DNA from: Mobula hypostoma
Lineage: Eukaryota
DNA: 64,000 nt
NCBI RefSeq assembly: GCF_963921235.1
Contig: NC_086097.1
Coordinates: 6,448,001 to 6,512,000, forward strand
Reading direction: 5' to 3'
The notes below the pieces were generated by a model. It saw only the letters and a program-made list of their open reading frames with translations. It was not told the DNA's origin and ran no database searches. Of the stretch, positions 46,048 to 57,048 are shown piece after piece (the stretch's first letter is position 1; the number at the start of each line of letters is the position of its first letter). Both the position numbers and the translations under genes were made by a program.

Positions 46048-48187
46048 TAAGTAAAGGGAATAAGGGAGAAACAGTGAGTTGAATTGAGATCCTGGTTTAA
46101 GAAGACCTGGAAAGAGAACTAAAAGCCACAGATGTCATGATATTATAGTGATTAGTGAGAAACTATTACAGCTCAAGGGTTTGGAGTTTGGAGATCATCT
46201 CTGGCATCCTTCTGTAAGAAAGTTTGTACACTCTCCCTGTGTGCACGTGGATTTCCTTTGGGTGCTTCATTTTCATCCCACAGTCCAGTCAGTAGGTGAA
46301 GTGGTCTTTGTAAATTGTCCTGTGATTAGGTTAGGGTTAAATAGGTGGGTTGCTGGTTGATGTGGCTCATTGGGACGGAACGGTCTGTTCCCTGCTGTAT
46401 CCCTGAATAAGTAAAAATAAGGCCATAAGGTGAGAATAAAAGTATAAAAGATCATGAGTCAAATTTATTGTCATGAGAAGGCCAGGTACAGTGAAAATCT
46501 CGCAGCAGGTTCACAACACCAAGACAAGTAGACAACACAGAATATAAATTAGACTTTATTTATTTATTTATTTGTGTATTTACTTACTTATTCAGAGATA
46601 CAGTGCAGAACAGGCCCTTTCTGTCCAATGAACCCCGGCACCTAGCAGCTCACCGAGAGCCTGGCGAGAATGGAAAGGCGAAAATACAAGAAGACATAGG
46701 AGCAGAATTAGGCCATTTGGCCCAGAGTGTTCTCTGCCATTTCATCATGGCTGATCTAATTTTCCTCTCAGTTTCAATCTCCTGCCTTCTTCCCAAATCC
46801 CTTCATACCCTGTTCAATCAAGAATCTATCAACCTCTGTCTTAAATATACATAAAGACTTGGACTCCACAGCTACATGTAGCAAAGAATTCCACAGTTTC
46901 AGCACTCTGCAGCTAAAAAAAAATCCTCCTCATCTCTGTTCTAAAATGACACCTCTCTATTCTGAGGCTGTGTCCTCTGGTCTTAGACTCTCCCACCATA
47001 GGAAACAGTCTCTCCAACCTCTCAAGGCCTTTCACCATTCTATAGGTTTCAATGTGTCACCCCTCATTCTTCTAAATTTTAGTAAATACAGGCCCAGAGC
47101 TATCAAACACTTCATATGACAAGCCATTCAATGCTGGAGTCATTTTCATGAACCTCCTTTGAACTCTGTCCAGTTTCAGCCCATCCCTTCTAAGATAAGG
47201 AGCCCAAACCTGCTCACAATAATCAAAGAGAGGCCTCACCAGTGGTTTATAAAGCCTCAACATCACATCTTTGCTTTTATATTCTAGTCCACTTGAAATG
47301 AACTCTGACATTGCATTTGCCTTCCTCACCATAGTCTCAATCTGCAAGTTAACCTTTATGGAACCCTGCACAAGGTCTCCCAGGTCCCTTTGCACCTCAG
47401 TTTTTTAAAATATTTTCTCTCCATTTAATAAACAGATTATCCTTTCATCTCTTCTGCCAAAGTGCATGACCATACACATCCCAATACTGTATTCCAGCTG
47501 CCATTTCTTTGCCATTTTTCTCCTAATCTGTCCAACTCCTTCCGTAGCCTTTCTACTTCCTCCAGAACTATCTTCCTCTCTGCCTATCTTCATATCGCCT
47601 GCAAACTTTACAACAAAGCCATCTATTCCTTCACCCAGATAAATCATTGGCATATAATACGAATAGAATTGGTCCCAACACAGACCCCTGTGGAACACCA
47701 CTCATCACTCGCAGCCAGCCAAAAAAGGTTCCCTTTATTCCCACTCTTTGCCTCCTGACAATCAGCCACTGCTTTATCCATGCTAGAATCTTTCTTGTCA
47801 TACTACTGGCTTGTAGCTTGTTAAGCAGTCTCGTACATGGCACCTTGTCAAGTGCCTTCTGAAAATCCAAGTACACAACATCAACTGATTCTCCTTTGTC
47901 TATCCTGCTTGCTATTTCTTCAAAGAATTCCAACAGATTTGTCAAGCAACATTTTTCATTGAGGAAACCATACAGACTACAGCCTATTTTATCATGTGCA
48001 TCCAAATACTCTGAGACCTCATCCTTAATTATTGACTCCAACATCTTCTCAACCACTGAGATCAGACTAACTGGCCTATAGCTCTCATTCTGCCTCTCTG
48101 TCTTCTGGAGAATGGAGTGACATTTGAAATTTTCCAGTCTCCCGGAAGTATTCCAGAATCTAGTGATCCTTGAAAGATCTTTACTAA

Positions 48188-48544
48188 TGTCATGGTCCGG
48201 TCTGTGAAACCCGCGTTCCGGTTCTCAGTCCAGTCCATGGACTCTGGACTCCAGGTCTTCCGGCTGTCCCTTGTTTCATTTGGGCTTAGTCATAGGCACC
48301 TGATGCTCGTCTTGGGGCTGGGAATATCAGTGGCCCTGGGTTCGCGTGTGGTTGCTGGTGTCTCGTCAGTATCCCGTCCTCACCTACGTGGGGTAAGTCA
48401 GGCTCTTTGCCGTTACCCTGAGGCTGGACTGTTCCCTTCCCTTGCCCTTCCTTCTGAAGTCTTGCCTGTGACCTGCGCCTGAAGCCTTGCTCACAACCTG
48501 TGTCTTGCATTTGGTTCTGCCACCCAGCACCTCCCTTTATGACA
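48188..48544 (+). mobile_element. Solo LTR (357 bp)
   Basis: TGTCAT...ATGACA termini with 5-bp TSD ACTAA (48183-48187 and 48545-48549). Confidence 0.92.
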
Positions 48545-48858
48545 ACTAATGTATCCACAATCTCTTCTGCCACCTCTTTCAGAACCCTGGGGTGTTCACC
48601 ATCTGTTCCAGGTTGTTCAGACTTTTCATTTTCCCAAGAAACTTCTCTCTAGTAATGGTAACTTCACACACTTCATGTCCGCTGATGCCTGGAATTTCCA
48701 CCATGCTGGTATTGTCTTCCACAGTGGAGTCTGATGCAAAGTACTTATTCAGTTTGTCCACCATCTCCTTGTCCCCCAGTACTACCTCTCCAGCATTGTT
48801 TTCCAATGGTCCAATATCCACACTTGTCTCTCTTTCACACTTTATATATCTGGATAAA

Positions 48859-49042
48859 GCAACACACAAAAAAGTTGCTGGTGAACGCAGCAGGCCAGGC
48901 AGCATCTCTAGGATGAGGTAGAATTGATGTTTCGGGCCGAGACCCTTCGTTAGGACTAACTGAAAGAAGAGCTAGTAAGAGATTTGAAAGTGGGAGGGGG
49001 AGGGGGAGATCCGAAATGATAGGAGAAGACAGGAGGGGGAGG
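48859..49042 (-). mobile_element. 184-bp Penelope-like hammerhead repeat insertion with 13-bp TSD
   Basis: ATATCTGGATAAA at 48846-48858 and 49043-49055. Degenerate hammerhead at 48922-48957. Confidence 0.85.
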
Positions 49043-49417
49043 ATATCTGGATAAACCTCTTTTTTTGGTATCCTCTTTAATATTATTAGCTAGCCTACTT
49101 TCATATTCCACCTAAATCTTCTTAATGACCAGATGACACAGAGATACTGAAAGCTGACATATCCTAAGGATCCACATTCCAGAGTTCTGAAAGAGGTGAC
49201 AGCAAATTTAATGGATATAGGAATTACCATCCATCTATAGTAGGGGTTCCCAGCCTGGGGTCTAAGCCCCTTTGCTTACTGGTATTGGTCTATGGCATAA
49301 AGAAGGTTGGGCATCCTTGATCTTTTGGGAAGAGTTCACTACTATATAGTCCTCCCATTCTTCTCATAAGTTCGTACACCTCAGGAAAATAAAGATCCAG
49401 CAATCCATAACACAGGA

Positions 49418-49856
49418 CATTCTGCAGATGCTGGAAATCGAGAGTATCACAGTCAAAATATAGGAGGAACTCTGCAGGGCGGGCAGCATCTGTTACTTAT
49501 TTTTATGCACACATTCTTTCTCTCACTCTCCTTTTTCTCCCTCTGTCCCTCTGAATATACCTCTTGCCCATCCTCTGGGTCCCCCCCCCCTTGTCTTTCT
49601 TCCCGGACCTCCTGTCCCATGATCCTCTCATATCCCTTTTGCCTATCACCTGTCCAGCTCTTGGCTCCATCCCTCCCCCTCCTGTCTTCTCCTATCATTT
49701 TGAATCTCCCCCTCCCCCTCCAACTTTCAAATCCCTTACTCACTCTTCCTTCAGTTAGTCCTGACGAAGGGTCTCGGCCTGAAACGTCGACTGCACCTCT
49801 TCCTACAGATGCTGCCTGGCCTGCTGCGTTCACCAGCAACTTTGATGTGTGTTGCA
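49418..49856 (+). repeat. Penelope-like repeat with short inverted upstream copy
   Basis: 49418-49491 is an inverted partial copy of the repeat 3' end; 49492-49856 is the forward repeat. Confidence 0.75.
49757..49792 (+). ncRNA. Minimal type I hammerhead ribozyme motif (perfect core, GUC triplet)
   Basis: AGUC-CUGACGA-AGGGUCUCGGCCU-GAAA-C-GUC-GACU. Confidence 0.82.
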
Positions 49857-49869
49857 TGAATAAATAGTT

Positions 49870-52800
49870 GATATTTCCAGGCAATGCCAAGTTTTGTGGC
49901 CAGCCAGGACATTTCCGGGATACTTGCCCTCAGCGGCGAAAAGGGAAAGCTCACCAGTGAAAATGGGGGCCCTGGTCAGCCGGGTGATACTCCCTTCAGC
50001 CCCCCAGACTCGGATGCAGATCCCGGCTACCATGAATTACCAACGACAGTCCCTGTCCCCATCCGCTTTGGTGGATTCCGGTGCTGAAGGCAATCTGCTG
50101 GACGAAGGGATAGCCATCCAGGCCGGAATACCTCGCAAGCTGCTAACTATCCCCCTGGAGGCCCGGGCCCTGGATGGAAAACTACTGGCTCGAGTGACCC
50201 ACCGTACGTCGCCCCTGACCTTGATCCTGTCTGGCAACCATCGGGAGGAGGTACGATTCAGTCTCATTCATTCACCTCAAGCGCTGGTAGTTCTAGGGTA
50301 TCCATGGCTGACCCAATACAATCCCCACATCGACTGGTCTAACGGGAGGATAGCCAAATGGAGCCAGTCTTGCCACGCCAACTGCCTGTGGTCAGCCCCA
50401 TCTCCCAGAGAAGGTACCGCGACCCTGACTGTCCCGGAACCCCTCGATTTGTCCCGAGTCACCACAGAATACCATGACCTGGGACAGGTGTTCAGTAAAC
50501 AACGGGCCCTTTCCCTGCCTCCGCACCACCCATATGATTGTGGCATCGACCTTCTCCCTAGGGCCTCGCTACCCACCAGTCGCCTTTTTAACCTATCCCG
50601 ACAGGAGAGAGGCCATGAAGAAGTACATTAGTGAGTCCCTCGCGGCGGGCATTATCACACCTTCATCCTCCCCCGGTAGGCGCCAGTTTCTTCTTTGTGG
50701 AAAAGAAGGACTGGTCGCTTCGTCCTTGTATTGATTACAGAGGCCTAAACAGTATAACAGTTAAGAATAAGTACCCTCTACCCCTCATTAGATCGGCTTT
50801 TGAACCACTGCATGGAGCCACCATCTTCTCAAAGCTGGACCTTCGTAACACCAACCATCTAGTCAGGATGAGGGAGAGGAACGAGTGGAAGACGGCCTTC
50901 GATACACCTCTGGGCTTCTTCGAATATTTGGTCATGCCATTTGGCCTCACCAATGATCCCGCCATTTTTCAAGCCCTAAACAATGACGTACTGAGGGATT
51001 TTATTAATCGGTTCATATTGGTTTACCTTGATGATATCCTGATATTTTCTAGCACCCACCAAGAACACGTTCACCATGTCCGTCAAGTCCTCCAGAGACT
51101 GTGGGAAAACCAGTTATTTGTAAAGGCGGAGAAATGCGAGTTCTACATTCCTTCGGTCAGCTTCCTGGGTTATATCATTGAGAGCGGGCAGGTGAGAGCA
51201 GACCCCGAGAAGATCCGGGCAGTGGAAGAATGGCCTAGGCCCACGACCCGCAAACAACTTCAACGATTCCTGGGGTTTGTAAACTTCTACCGCCGACTTA
51301 TCAGAGACTACAGTCGAGTGGCTTCCCCCTTTACCCGGCTTACCTCGCCTACCATCCCCTTCTGTTGAGACTCCGAAGCTGACTCGGCGTTCACTGACCT
51401 GAAGAGGCGTTTCACCACCGCTCCCATCCTGGTCCATCCGGACCCTTCCCGCCAATTCATTGTTGAGGTGGACGCCTCTGACTCCGGGATAGAAGCAGTC
51501 CTGTCCCAACGATCAAGTTCGGACAAAAAGCTTCACCCCTGTGCCTTATGTTCTTGCCGACTGTCCCCTGCCGAGTGGAATTACGACGTGGGGAATCGGG
51601 TACTCCTGGCACTCAAACTAGCATTGGAAGAATGGAGGCACTGGCTAGAGGGGGCAGAACAACCAGTTGTGGTGTGGACTGATTATAAAAATTAAGACCG
51701 CCGAAAGTTTGAACTCCCGCCATTGAACTCCATTGGGCATTATTTTATTGACAGTTCAAGTTTTCCCTCACATACTGTCCAGGGTCCAAAACGGGAAGCC
51801 GGATGTGCTTTCCCGCCAATACGACTCCAAGGCGGACACTTCTAGCCCAGGGACTATCCCCTCACCATCCTGTGTGGTTGCCACACTCACTTGGGAGATC
51901 GAGCACAAAGTAAAAGAAGCCCAATGAGACGACCCCGACCCCGGCAGTGGACCCGGTGATCGCCGGTATGTGCCCGTTTCCGTCAGGTCTCAGGTTCTCC
52001 AATCGGGGCACACATCTCGGTTCGCCTGCCACCCTGGGAGTGATCGGACCCTAGTGCTCCTGAAAAAACACTTTTGGTGGCCATCCATGGAGGTGGATAC
52101 CCATTAATATGTCTCGGCATGTTCCATCTTTGCCTGGGGAAAAGCCTCTCACCGGCCACATGCGGGTTTACTTCGTCCTCTACCTGTCCCTGGTCATCCC
52201 TGGTTGCACATCACCCGAGAGTTCACCACCAGTCTACCGCCTTCACATGGAAACACCACCGTACTCACCGTGTTAGACCGGTTCTCCAAGGCGGTGCCCT
52301 TCGTAGCCCTCCCTAAACTCCCTTCCTTTCAAGAAACCGCAGATCTTCTCATCCGCCACGTCTTCCACCTCCACGGAATCCCCGCGGACATCGTCTCCGA
52401 TCGAGGTCCCCAGTTCATCTCGCAGGTATGGAAGGCATTCTGTCAAATCTTCGGTCAGACTGTCATCCGGCTTCCATCCCCAGACGAACGGGCAGACGGA
52501 AGGGGTCAACCAAGACCTGGAGGCGATGCTACCTTGTGTAATGGCAGACAACCCGTCGACCTGGAGCGACCACCTCCCGTGGGTTGAGTACGCCCACAAC
52601 TCCCTTGCGAATTCTGCCATTGGAAGGTCTCCATTCGAATTCTCCCTGGGGTACAAACCCCCGCTGTTCCCCGCGCAAGAAGAGGAGGTTGCGGTACTGT
52701 CGGTTCAGGACCATATCGATTGGTGCCTTAAGGTTTGGGAGCAGACACGCACGGCCCTACTCAGATCAGCAAATCGCAATAAAAAGATGGCCGACCGACA

Positions 52801-53672
52801 CCAGACTCCGGCGCCTGAGCACCAACCGGGGCAGATGGTGTGGCTTTCATCCAAGGACATCCCGCTCAAGAACGAGCAGAGGAAACTCGCCCCTCGCTTC
52901 CTGGGACCATTCAGGTCGAAAGTGTTATCAATCACGCAGCGGTTCGCCTAAAACTGCCAAGATCTATGCGCATCCACCTGACTTTCCATGTTTCCCAGTT
53001 AAAGCCAGTTTCCATCAGCCCCTTGTGTCCCCCGGCTGAGACTCCCCCACCTGCCCGTATGATCGACAACCACCCGGCATACACCGTCCGACGGCTACTG
53101 GCTGTGCGCCGTCGGGGCAGGGATCTCCAATATCTGGTGGACTCTGAAGGGTACGGTCCAGAAGAGCGTTCCTGGGTCCCCCGCTCCTTCATCCTAGACC
53201 CTTCCCTCATCCAGGACTTTCATCGGGACCATCCAGACAGGCCTGGAGGATCACCTGGAGGCTCCCGTTGAGGGAGGGATACTGTTGTGGTTCCTTCTGG
53301 CAATCCCCCACCTTCATTATTTACCTCAGGAATTGGGCCTCAATCCCCTCATTTAATTTCTAGTCATTCCCAGGTTCCACTAACTACACACACCTGCTTC
53401 CCATCAGAAAATGCAGGATAAAGACCCTGTGATCACAACAAGGATCTGCCAGTTCGTTGGTCGACTCTGGTGTGAGTAACCACGTTTCATGATTCTTAGC
53501 ACTGTTAGTTCTAAGTCAAGCATCGCTCCTGGATTCTCTCCAAACCTAAGACTTCGAGTAAAGACTCTCCTGAAAACCGATTCCACGCTCACTATGGAAA
53601 TAATGCCCCCCGACTCTGCCCCCACGCCCGTGTTCTGCACTTGGGTTCGTCCGCCGCCAAGCTCATGTAACA
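49870..53672 (+). mobile_element. Sushi-like chromovirus (Ty3/Gypsy) lacking the 5' LTR; 3' LTR at 53283-53672
   Basis: Knuckle FCGQPGHFRDTC, then PR-RT-RH-IN-chromodomain, PPT gagggagggatac, and LTR TGTTG...TAACA. Confidence 0.93.
49962..53271 (+). pseudogene. Gypsy pol pseudogene (protease, RT, RNase H, integrase, chromodomain)
   Basis: [39 protein letters not shown] and [16 protein letters not shown] motifs; several frameshifts and stops. Confidence 0.93.
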
Positions 53673-53870
53673 GGAATACAGGAGGATGTTTACTCTGGGT
53701 AGGATACAAGATGTTTACTCTGGGTGGGTGTAATCCAGAGAGCCGTGCCTGTCACAGCTCAGCACTGCCCTCTTCTCCCCTTGTAAATAAACTCCTTATT
53801 GTTAAAACTGTGTGTCTAGAATCCTTGCCTTTGAGACCCAAAGAATCTGCCTCATTTCCATCAGAACATT

Positions 53871-53889
53871 TGGCGCTGCGAAGCAGGGT
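53871..53889 (+). promoter_or_regulatory. Primer binding site, tRNA-Ser-like
   Basis: TGGCGCTGCGAAGCAGGGT lies 2 nt after the LTR. It resembles the complement of recalled vertebrate tRNA-Ser(UGA/CGA) 3' ends. Confidence 0.7.
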
Positions 53890-53925
53890 CTCACAGGTCT
53901 TGGTTGGACACAGAGCACAGGGGGA

Positions 53926-55130
53926 ATGTTCTGGAACAAGGGGAAGAAAGCCAGTGCAGGCACCCAGAATAAGATCCCCGGGTGGACCGATGAAAGGGAG
54001 GGATTTGAGAGTCTGGTGAGCATGCTGGCAAACCACAGGAAACCTGCGGACTGATCTGAGCAGCTAGACCCCCGTGGCGAGAAGCCGGGCCAGCACGTGG
54101 TCTCCCTCCCTAAGGAATCAGGGTTCCCCAAAGCCAAGGGGAGTCAAAGAGGTGCCTTTTGGTCGTTTGCGTTCCTGCTGAGACGCCAGGTCAGGATTAC
54201 CGACGACATTCAGCACTTGCGTGGTCAGAAGGACAAGGGGCTAGAAGAACTCCGGCAGAGCTGCTGCATGCTGGAGGAGGCAGCCAAGGAGCTCGAAGTC
54301 AGGGGATCTGAGGTCGTCTGCAGGCTCATACAACTGCAGCAGGTGCGGGCAGCCCGTCGGTCTGGCTGGCAGCCGGACCGGCTAAAGATTCGAGCCCTGG
54401 TCCAGCGCAGCGACAAGCTGGACGCGTGGCTGGTGTACGGGGACATCCGGCTGGATAGCGACGAGGAGGGGGTGCCCGAGGAGCCTAGGTCCCACAACCA
54501 CCCTTCCCCCTTCTCACCTGCTCAATAACATGCCTGACCCGTCACCACGCGGTCCCAGGTTCACCGCAGGGAGGAAGGGGATGAGCGGGGCCCGGCCAGA
54601 CCTACCCCTGGTCACTCCGAGACCACGGAGACCCGGGACTTCGCCCCCAAGGAGATGTCCCAACTGTCGGATCGGTACCGCCTACAACCAGGCGAGTACC
54701 TGGCCGCCCGGATGCTCCGGCTGTGGGACGCGGGGCGGGGGTGCTGTCCCAACCTCAGCCTCTCCCATTAGGAGGCAAGCGCTCTGTGAAGCCTCCCTGA
54801 CCAGCAGAGCATAAATAATGCGCTGTGGGCGCCACAAACACGAGACCGCGATGGCACTACCCTGTGGGATCGGGCAGTGACCGCGGTAAGAGCCCGATAT
54901 CCCACCCTTCTGGAGTGGGATCTACACGGGCGCCCGCAATGGGGTACGGTCAGTGAGGGCACCCGGCTTATCAGGGAATGGGCACTGGTCAACGGCATCT
55001 ATCAATGCGCCTGCGACCGTAACTTCCTCGAAAACAGACGAGTGACCGGTGCCCTTGCAGGATACCTGGTCACTACCGCGCGCCCCGACCCGAAGGCAGT
55101 TATCCTGCCCCTCATGGCACCAGCCAGTGG
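53926..55130 (+). pseudogene. gag: ERV-L/S-like gag pseudogene (one frame, five point stops)
   Basis: KIRALV...YGDI.LDSDEE, A*PVTT, TRDFAPKEM...YRLQPGEYLAARMLRLWDAG, TLWDRAVTAVRARYP and WGTVSEGTRLIREWA motifs. Confidence 0.8.
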
Positions 55131-55142
55131 TAGGACCGTACG

Positions 55143-55340
55143 GACTCCATTCAAACCCCACTACAGGAGGCAGTTATTAGACCCACAGCATCCCCTTTCA
55201 ACAGCCCCGTTTGGCCCGTCCGCAAAAAGAACGGCTCCTGGCCGATGGGGACCGTTGACTACAGGCACCCAAACAAAGCTGCAACTCCCCCCGGCCACCA
55301 CCGTACCCGACATTGTCACCTTCATTGAGGACATCTCAGG
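55143..55340 (+). pseudogene. pol: Class III retroviral RT N-terminal fragment
   Basis: VIRPTASPFNSPVWPVRKKNGSWPMGTVDYRHPNKAATP, then a frameshift to ATTVPDIVTFIEDIS. Confidence 0.85.
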
Positions 55341-57048
55341 ACATCCACATAAACTGCTCAGCACTGCCCTCTACCTGGTCGGAAGACACACCACATGCCA
55401 GTCAACATTTCACCCCTCCCAACTAATCAACACACACTTAACCATTGGCCACCTTAATTGGATTTTAACCCGTCTAGCACCAAGCCGTTGCTCCCCCCCA
55501 CCCCCGCCCCGATGAATCACCTGGGCTGGACCCTCCAGCCCCCTGACCTATAAAGGGTGCTACATGTGCTTGGCTCGCTTTCTTTTTCTGCTATCTCCGA
55601 GGGACCACCCTGCTGTTGGTGAGTTGCGCATTGAGTAAGGTTTTGGGGGCGTTTATTGTTGTCCCTGTAGAAGAGAGCCGTGCCTGCCCATAGTCAAGGG
55701 GTGGCAGGTACCGTAGTTACTTTTCCCTTGCTTGTATATGTACCTGTACTCTGTCCCCACACCGCTTTCCCGTGTATTGTACTGCCGACCCGGCTTTTCC
55801 CACGCTCGTCTATTCTAAGTGTGCTTGCGTGAATATTGTAGCTGCTTGTGTTGTCGCCAAGCTCTCCTCTCCTTGTAAATAAACTCCTTATTGTTAAAAC
55901 TGTGTGTCCAGAATCCTTGACTTTGACACTCAAAGAATCTGTCTCGTTTCCATCACAACAGTGGGTACAGGAGGATGCTTACTCTGGGTGGGATATAGGT
56001 GTTTACTCTGGGTGGGATACAGGTGTTTACTCTGGGTGGGATACAGGATGATGTTTACCCTGGGTGGGATTCAGGAGGATGCTTACTCTGGGTGGGATTC
56101 AGGTGTTTACTCTGGGTGGGGAGTCTAGAAGCAGGTGATTTCGGTCTCAGGGTATTTAGGACTGAGGAGGATATAAATCATGAGTAAAAGAGAGCCTGCT
56201 GTCTCCTTAGGTCTGTTGTGACATGCAATTAAATCCCAGCTGATCCAATCTTGCCTCAGTATTAATCCAGGTGATCAACACGGAGATCTGAGCACCAATC
56301 CCTGTGGTACTTGAATAATTTCTGATTTCCAACCCATAAAGACAAGCACATTTATCCCAAATTTGTTTTCTGTTTGTTCACTAACTCTTTCTTTTTGCCA
56401 AGATATTATCCACAACGCTTTGCATTCTGATATGCTATCTTTTATGAGACACCTTTTTGAATGTCTTGAAGAAATCCAGATACACTGTATCTTCTGTTTT
56501 CACCTTTATCCTCCAGGTTGTCACATTCCCTTCTTGTAAGTCTGTCAAGCTCTATTTTTCTTTAATATGATTTTCTAGATTTCCTTCACATTGCCTCAAA
56601 AATGGATCACGGCATTTTCACAATAATGCATGTTAGTCTAACTGGGTTATTGCTTCTAGTTTTCTGTCTCCTTTCTTGAAAGCTACCATTCTTCAATTGT
56701 ATTTTGTTTTACTGATGCTATCTGATCTCACCTGGATGGAAGGAGTTTAGTTGGTTACAACTAATGCATCCACTATGTCTTTGGAGCCTCTTCATTTCAA
56801 ACTCTAATTGGAGAAATGTCTTGAAGGAGCAAGTAGAGAAATGTACTGAATTAGTGAATTTAATCAGAGGCATGAGGAGACTTATTAAATGCGTTTGTTC
56901 AGAAGACCACAAGTCTTGGGGCAGAATTAGGCTGTTCAGTCCATTGACTCTACTTCATAATTCCATCATGGCTGATTTATTATCCCCCTCAAACCCTATT
57001 CCCTCCATAACTTTTGATGAACTTACTAATCAAGAACCCATCAATATC

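Follow-up and report, generated by a model that had tools for sequence, protein, structure and literature searches.

A decayed provirus in the ray Mobula hypostoma that probably belongs with the class III, ERV-L-related retroviruses

We analyzed a 64,000-nucleotide stretch of the genome of the ray Mobula hypostoma (RefSeq assembly GCF_963921235.1, contig NC_086097.1, positions 6,448,001 to 6,512,000 of the forward strand), called the window below, in which positions 53729 to 55960 hold the remains of an endogenous retrovirus (ERV). Very probably, this element is a single old, dead copy of a multicopy ERV family of batoid fishes, and the family goes with the class III, ERV-L-related retroviruses. 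To judge by its sequence, the copy is a provirus remnant whose gag and reverse transcriptase (RT) go with class III, ERV-L-related elements, and this assignment is supported. The proteins closest to the family come from dasyatid stingrays (74-84% identity; gene models of Hemitrygon akajei and Hypanus sabinus), followed by the electric ray Narcine bancroftii. The initial annotation had called the element a class III provirus in a cartilaginous-fish genome. That call held up: the closest relatives of gag and RT are found in rays, the nearest fuller Pol proteins bear a dUTPase, and the RT stands apart from epsilon-like and Gypsy RTs. The parts of the element, including its long terminal repeats (LTRs), are as follows.

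53724..53728, + strand: target-site duplication, left copy, GTGGG; inside a minisatellite (direct reading)
53729..53868, + strand: 5' LTR, 140 bp, TGT...ACA; AATAAA at 53786-53791; about 490 bp lost after 53773
53871..53888, + strand: putative primer binding site, 18 nt starting with TGG, 2 bases past the LTR (direct reading)
53926..55143, + strand: gag, a single frame from the ATG at 53926, with five in-frame stops (54052, 54526, 54535, 54769, and 54787)
55134..55292, + strand: N-terminal RT fragment in a frame other than that of gag; RT homology from about 55143; blastx matches to the stingray model P0003 and many vertebrate Pols
55297..55350, + strand: second RT piece after a frameshift, with ..TTVPDIVTFIEDISGHPH..; RT ends here; a contig piece of another copy covers 55149-55341
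55353..55960, + strand: 3' LTR, fused to the RT stub and ending in ACA; TATAAA at 55549-55554 and AATAAA at 55878-55883; first ~25 bp gone
55961..55965, + strand: target-site duplication, right copy, GTGGG (direct reading)

The RT stub and its Pol relatives

On translation, the RT reads ...SPFNSPVWPVRKKNGSW..TVDYR and DSIQTPLQEAVIRPTASPFNSPVWPVRKKNGSW..TVDYR in the second frame, and the gag frame then gives VPDIVTFIEDISGHPHK and TTVPDIVTFIEDISGHPHK. An RT segment running to TVDYR with a frameshifted continuation had been claimed for this region, and both pieces are present as stated. Only about 71 N-terminal RT residues are left in the window. These residues were identical to the RT of the H. 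akajei model P0003 at 44 of 64 positions and to a lungfish RT at 38 of 61, with bichir next. Identities to epsilon-like rows were 16/38 and 11/27, and identity to the RT of the neighboring Gypsy element was 11/25. The stub paired with P0003 in a quick tree (Shimodaira-Hasegawa-like approximate likelihood ratio test [SH-aLRT], 94).

We searched with the full RT of P0003 and obtained 348 matches at E ≤ 1e-10, of which the best 120 are considered here. The P0003 RT was 50-55% identical to Pols of frogs, caecilians, newts, owls, killifish, bichir, and lungfish (350-420 bits). Identity to the abundant class of bird RTs was 42-45%, and bird RTs overall fell between 42 and 51%. Among eight Pol relatives from other vertebrates that were scanned for domains, five had the order RT-RNase H-integrase-dUTPase; two were cut short, and one had no dUTPase.

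We then built an RT tree of 45 rows and 333 columns, rooted on the window's own Gypsy RT. Besides P0003 and the Gypsy RT, it held 34 rows chosen for host spread from the 120 best RT matches, 8 epsilon-like teleost rows chosen from 120, and one further epsilon-like reference (L001); foamy, snakehead retrovirus (SnRV), gamma, beta, and mammalian ERV-L reference rows, and likewise those of ERV-S, were not part of it. The tree separated a class III-like clade of 35 rows (support 94/86) from an epsilon-like clade (95/96), with the Gypsy row as an outgroup on a very long branch. Within the class III-like clade, P0003 fell in a 12-row clade (96/91), where it split off first, as the sister of the remaining 11. 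Alongside it were P0006 and other unnamed rows as well as Pleurodeles, Polypterus, Protopterus, Xenopus tropicalis, a turtle, and a pheasant; outside this 12-row clade came the large clade of birds and a pair formed by Lepidothrix and Gavia. A comparison with Gypsy and epsilon references had been proposed in the initial annotation, and in it the stingray RT and the window stub both fell apart from the epsilon-like fish ERVs and from Ty3/Gypsy.

L001 was the only locus returned by a scan of viral contigs for reference retroviruses. It is an IMG/VR contig of 10,305 bp that holds a complete gag-pol-env retrovirus, with an RT 83% identical to salmonid ERV proteins. We take it, as a guess, to be salmon swim bladder sarcoma virus.

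Three further ideas about the lineage did not fare as well. It had been described as possibly deep branching; the best tree instead nests the stingray RT within the 12-row clade (96/91). When the tree was constrained so that the stingray RT formed the sister of the 34 other class III-like rows together, it was only 4.6 log-likelihood units worse, and this basal position was not rejected by the approximately unbiased test (p-AU 0.25). Transmission between vertebrate classes had also been suggested. RT identity to relatives outside rays does not exceed 55%, and therefore nothing indicates a recent transfer. Finally, the lineage had been called one best known from tetrapods, yet similar Pols also occur in killifish, bichir, and lungfish.

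The gag frame

The gag frame runs through 400 codons on translation with zero frameshifts. It had been reported to be broken only by five point stops, and exactly those five stops are found. The last ~120-130 codons are missing, since in alignments the full-length relatives P0125 and P0133 continue past the end of the window's frame.

We looked for relatives of Gag with a word-indexed protein search and an exhaustive phmmer search. The best ray match was H. akajei P0003 (143 of 192 residues identical, 74%), a 663-amino-acid model labeled "LOW QUALITY" that also carries the full RT. The phmmer search with the window Gag gave 48 matches at E ≤ 1e-3. Names were obtained for 10 of these: two from Narcine bancroftii, one from H. 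akajei, four from birds, two unnamed, and one spurious Citrus zinc-finger protein. One of the N. bancroftii relatives is labeled "Friend virus susceptibility protein 1-like" (Fv1-like) by NCBI. P0125 (521 amino acids) was 28% identical over residues 9-400, which is almost the whole window Gag; this Gag and the dUTPase-bearing Pol P0006 each come from a 6537-bp contig. In bird gag-pol models, the N-terminal gag part also matched the window gag, at 27-34% identity (E 1e-8 to 4e-13). The full-length Gag relatives are 521-532 amino acids long, and Pfam found no zf-CCHC domain in the full-length P0125 and P0133; the window Gag itself has lost its C terminus. Pfam applied to 16 Gag sequences (the window's and 15 relatives) gave nothing relevant, neither a foamy Gag family nor an Fv1-cluster family. 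Searches of PDB sequences with Gag and with a Gag profile found no match.

Several ray gene models are, or contain, pieces of such ERVs. This applies to the NCBI models P0003, P0004, P0124, and P0126 of H. akajei and N. bancroftii. P0004 is a TRIM/A33-like model that ends in absorbed ERV gag and Gypsy RT fragments. What is annotated in rays as an isoform of "sperm acrosome-associated protein 9" and as an "Fv1-like" protein is Gag of a related ERV family.

Homology to Gags linked with class III Pol indicates that gag would code for a capsid-type protein. We also predicted its structure. A model of the complete Gag, in which X replaced each stop, had a pLDDT of 67.5 and consisted of a long helical hairpin (residues 74-146), a middle part predicted to be disordered, and a C-terminal helical domain modeled with confidence; this last domain modeled alone reached a pLDDT of 80.1 and a pTM of 0.72. 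In a wide structural search, the whole Gag drew matches that were filled by coiled-coil look-alikes of residues 70-146. With the C-terminal domain, 58 of 48,161 chains reached Z 2 and none reached Z 5. Ten of the best 12 rows were retroviral capsids at Z 3.0-4.1, among them those of HIV-1 (4.1), prototype foamy virus (4.0), HERV-K (3.7), and murine leukemia virus (MLV, 3.4). The models thus lend weak support to a predicted capsid fold for this domain. In the Atlas, the structural cluster nearest to P0125 was "Friend virus susceptibility 1" (TM 0.36/0.50, 205 residues), which we treat as a lead only.

Ends of the element and the target site

Read directly, the element begins with TGTAATCC at 53729 and ends with CACAACA at 55960. 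TG...CA ends and an exact 5-bp target-site duplication had been claimed, and they are there: TGT stands at 53729, ACA at 55960, and GTGGG on either side. The insertion lies inside a minisatellite of 24/28-bp units, which it splits into 53674-53728 and 55961-56120. Since the repeat unit itself contains GTGGG, identical 5-mers alone would prove little. Excising the element together with one GTGGG gives CTCTGGGTGGGTACAGG, which is 1 base short of the repeat unit and so restores a near-perfect unit; a sequence that retains both copies of GTGGG does not fit the unit. We therefore accept the 5-bp duplication as real.

If the general mechanism of retroviruses applied here, the viral genome would have been reverse transcribed from a tRNA primer at the site after the 5' LTR, and integrase would then have put the provirus into the minisatellite, duplicating 5 bp.

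A 1084-nt contig of run X1 spans 55890-56400 with zero differences and may come from the source sample. A contig of a second organism jumps 104 bp inside the minisatellite (from 55999 to 56104), and minisatellite length therefore varies between organisms. Among the contig rows listed for this second organism, none spans an empty site or the 5' junction.

LTRs, primer site, and deletions

The ends of the two LTRs had been reported to pair. They do so over a terminal 99-nt stretch, in which 53770-53868 and 55862-55960 are identical at 90 of 99 places (90.9%; blastn E 3e-34). Within the 64-kb window, this terminal pair is the sole internal repeat of the element found by blastn. The LTRs are not a simple pair, and both are damaged. 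A 20-mer of the 5' LTR (53754-53773) is found again at 55353-55372 with 19 of 20 letters the same, exactly where RT coding ends. A contig of another copy links 53755 to 55359, and four further contigs show 5'-LTR-like letters just before 55375. Because of this recurrence and of the contig joints at 55359/55375, we place the start of the 3' LTR at about 55353 and the length of the full LTR at ~630 bp. In each of the four DNA runs described below, contigs summed to a greater depth over 55380-55900 than over gag. In the 3' LTR, the TATAAA box lies within the part that corresponds to the ~490 bp lost from the 5' LTR.

A 14-nt motif, AGAGAGCCGTGCCT, is found at 53737-53750, near the LTR start, and a second time, without mismatch, at 55672-55685, ~320 bp inside the 3' LTR. 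This motif, which may repeat within the LTR, misled a simple LTR alignment.

As claimed for the primer binding site, TGG starts at 53871, 2 nt after the LTR. ARAGORN found no tRNA genes in the 64-kb window, and the primer-site string was not found in the literature. A scan of metagenome contigs with 16 nt of the primer site gave at least 118 chance-level matches; 60 of the 80 returned loci were checked, and none held a tRNA gene.

Since insertion, the copy has lost sequence at two internal joints. At the joint near 55143, the protease is gone, together with the end of gag and the first part of RT; here contig pieces of other copies break off at 55142/55143, with loose ends continuing beyond. 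The joint near 55351 marks the loss of the remaining pol, of the polypurine tract, of any env, and of ~25 bp at the start of the 3' LTR. In addition, the copy has gained the five gag stops and one RT frameshift. Over 53600-56100, blastx found no similarity to protease, RNase H, integrase, or env, and no coding similarity past 55410. Because P0003 and P0071 carry RT, RNase H, and integrase, the absence of RNase H and integrase is a deletion in this copy and not a trait of the family. With no complete promoter LTR and no means of making protease, polymerase, or integrase, the copy is an inert relic.

Other copies and the age of the insertion

Contigs of four public DNA runs (coded organisms A, B, C, and E) were aligned on 53300-56400 at 80% likeness. 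Many related contigs were present in all four runs, and their pieces and loose ends mark both deletion joints. Over gag, two copies of organism A differed from the window copy at 19 of 228 and 21 of 222 letters. At the stop positions 54535 and 54769, most related contigs had no stop, and at least these two stops therefore arose in this copy.

Between the two LTR tails, 9 of 99 places are different. Depending on the substitution rate of this host, the insertion would be at least tens of millions of years old. For the elephant shark, Han 2015 (PMC4422223) implies a divergence of 0.033 for 75 million years. By the elephant-shark rate, the insertion would be ~200 million years old; by an assumed rate of 1-2e-9 per site per year, 25-50 million years. 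The element still retains a CpG observed/expected ratio of 0.61 (flanks, 0.24-0.29), which argues against the oldest of these figures. Its GC content is 0.57, against a background of 0.40-0.43.

Alternative readings

Several points weigh against the assignment to the class III, ERV-L-related retroviruses. Compared with solved structures, the P0003 RT scored higher with the RTs of MLV and xenotropic MLV-related virus (XMRV) (149-151 bits) than with foamy virus protease-RT (PR-RT) (122-126 bits); neither score comes near the 350-420 bits reached with ERV-L-type Pols. Pfam found no family in the window Gag or in the RT stub. Foldseek gave no significant match to the Gag models: there was none for the whole Gag at E ≤ 0.001, and the best row for the C-terminal domain was the HIV capsid at E 1.3. 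The term "ERV-L-related" draws on the domain order of relatives, on source labels, and on papers, and the tree lacks mammalian ERV-L, ERV-S, SnRV, and foamy rows. P0003 is a "LOW QUALITY," chimeric model, and the window's RT stub is the sole link that puts its gag and RT in one family. In the ray family itself, the longest Pol model, P0071 of Hypanus, stops inside integrase, ahead of any dUTPase or env.

There is a small chance that the element is a foamy-like (spuma-related) or SnRV-like fish ERV. Both kinds are lineages already described in the elephant shark (PMC5512871 and PMC4422223). The RT tree has no row for either, and the structures that best match the Gag domain include the capsid of prototype foamy virus (Z 4.0). 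That match is tied with those of orthoretroviral capsids, and the 122-126 bits of foamy PR-RT stand against 350-420 bits, at 50-55% identity, for Pols with a dUTPase after integrase. No foamy Gag family was found by Pfam in the window Gag or its 15 relatives; one Gag relative is instead labeled Fv1-like, and the Atlas lead of P0125 is the Fv1 cluster.

These Fv1 links raise another reading, that the gag frame is a host-domesticated, Fv1-like restriction gene. The absence of frameshifts over 400 codons would suit such a gene, as would the label of the ray relative. Fv1 has a helical hairpin followed by a capsid-like domain, and the predicted layout of the Gag model, a long helical hairpin and then a capsid-like domain, would be Fv1-like in the same way. 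The frame nevertheless has five in-frame stops, has lost its C-terminal ~120-130 codons, still lies between its own LTRs with a primer site, and is one of many diverged copies. The stops rule out a domesticated gag gene for this copy, and we regard the reading as highly improbable.

We give almost no credence to a nonretroviral Ty3/Gypsy LTR retrotransposon or an epsilon-like class I ERV. A Ty3/Gypsy pol does lie just 450 bp upstream of the ERV, and epsilon-like ERVs are frequent in fishes. Against this, the window RT matched Gypsy at 11/25 and epsilon-like rows at 16/38 and 11/27, compared with 44/64 for the stingray class III RT; the RT tree splits the class III-like rows (94/86) from the epsilon-like ones (95/96); and the Gag relatives are of the retrovirus type only. 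The RT identities, the careful tree, and the quick tree all contradict a Gypsy or epsilon identity.

Relation to known retroviruses

The initial annotation had proposed that the lineage might be undescribed. This was not supported. Clade III made up the majority of ERV RTs in Chondrichthyes in a 2024 DIGS survey (2,843 RT loci in 6 genomes; PMC11089739, Table 2), and class III retroviruses belong to a clade said to infect all major vertebrate lineages (Xu et al. 2018, PMC6001957); that work also notes that the retroviruses of cartilaginous fishes are not basal. Class III ERVs are already known to be common in cartilaginous fishes, and the ray family is not a new kind, because clade III loci have already been reported in Chondrichthyes. 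The survey and our family share the host class and the broad clade; the survey gives counts, not families. For the elephant shark, SnRV-like, epsilon-like, and foamy-like lineages are described in PMC4422223 and PMC5512871. In the literature searched, as far as its text was accessible, we found no description of an ERV-L-type family in rays.

PMC8278194 names as characteristic of ERV-L and class III a dUTPase that follows integrase, LTRs with TGT...ACA ends, and a duplication of 5 bp, and the ends and duplication of the window element fit that description. The same paper describes XtERV-S of Xenopus tropicalis, which has TGT...ACA ends, a 5-bp duplication in related copies, a 705-bp LTR, a primer site assigned to tRNA-Ser, a gag of ~530 codons that is related to ERV-L gag and has no Cys-His box, and YIDD in RT. 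XtERV-S resembles the window element in its LTR ends, its 5-bp duplication, and its LTR length (~630 bp in the window), P0003 in its YIDD, and the Gag relatives (521-532 amino acids, with no zinc knuckle by Pfam) in its gag. A Pol model of the same frog species, P0025, falls in the 12-row clade with the stingray RT at ~50% RT identity. Unlike XtERV-S, the window copy has no env, integrase, or dUTPase left.

The family shares with mammalian ERV-L (MuERV-L/HERV-L) the 5-bp duplication and, in its nearest fuller Pol relatives, a dUTPase after integrase. ERV-L is named for its tRNA-Leu primer site, and the ERV-L-type lineage is the source, through its gag, of the mouse restriction gene Fv1. The candidate link of our family to Fv1 is the NCBI label of one Gag relative, along with the Atlas lead of P0125. 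No mammalian sequence was among the 120 best RT matches listed. With the avian ERV-L-related groups L1-L3 (PMC12287698), the connection is that the window gag matches bird gag-pol and that 4 of the 10 named Gag clusters come from birds. The abundant bird clade of the RT tree (Grus, Anas, Corvus, and Hirundo) and the Lepidothrix/Gavia pair lie outside the clade of the stingray RT.

Neighboring elements

A degraded Ty3/Gypsy pol of the chromovirus type lies upstream of the ERV on the + strand (49864-53271, ending near 53672). It is spread over several frames and has aspartic protease, RT, RNase H, integrase, SH3-like, and chromodomain regions. Many contigs of other Gypsy copies end at 53672/53673, and the Gypsy element therefore adjoins the same minisatellite, only ~55 bp from the ERV. 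We looked for an LTR pair of this Gypsy element and did not find one. Positions 53300-53507 are a very high-copy repeat, with a summed contig depth of ~1e4 in all four runs, far above that of the ERV; the repeat is probably a Gypsy tail or LTR, or a short interspersed element (SINE). Farther upstream, a non-LTR RT fragment of the long interspersed element (LINE) type lies on the - strand (47631-48224; RVT_1, E 6e-18). Over 48000-56000, the two retroelements form an island with a GC content of 0.53-0.58 and a CpG observed/expected ratio of 0.6-0.7, compared with background values of 0.40-0.43 and 0.24-0.29.

Implications

The Mobula copy is one characterized example, in both its anatomy and its mode of decay, of the class III ERVs of cartilaginous fishes, which have so far only been counted in surveys. 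In practice, it can serve as a marker for annotating this ERV family and for flagging ray gene models that have absorbed its fragments (P0003, P0004, and P0124).

We consider it rather unlikely that the ray family split off before all other ERV-L-related retroviruses, or before the rest of the Xenopus/lungfish/bichir subclade, and that it diverged along with the jawed vertebrates with no transfer between hosts. If this were true, the lineage of ERV-L/Fv1-type Gag and Pol would have a marine origin older than the divergence of cartilaginous from bony fishes. Fuller ray copies that showed a dUTPase after integrase and a position sister to the bony-vertebrate lineages would help to date the ERV-L-type lineage to early jawed vertebrates.

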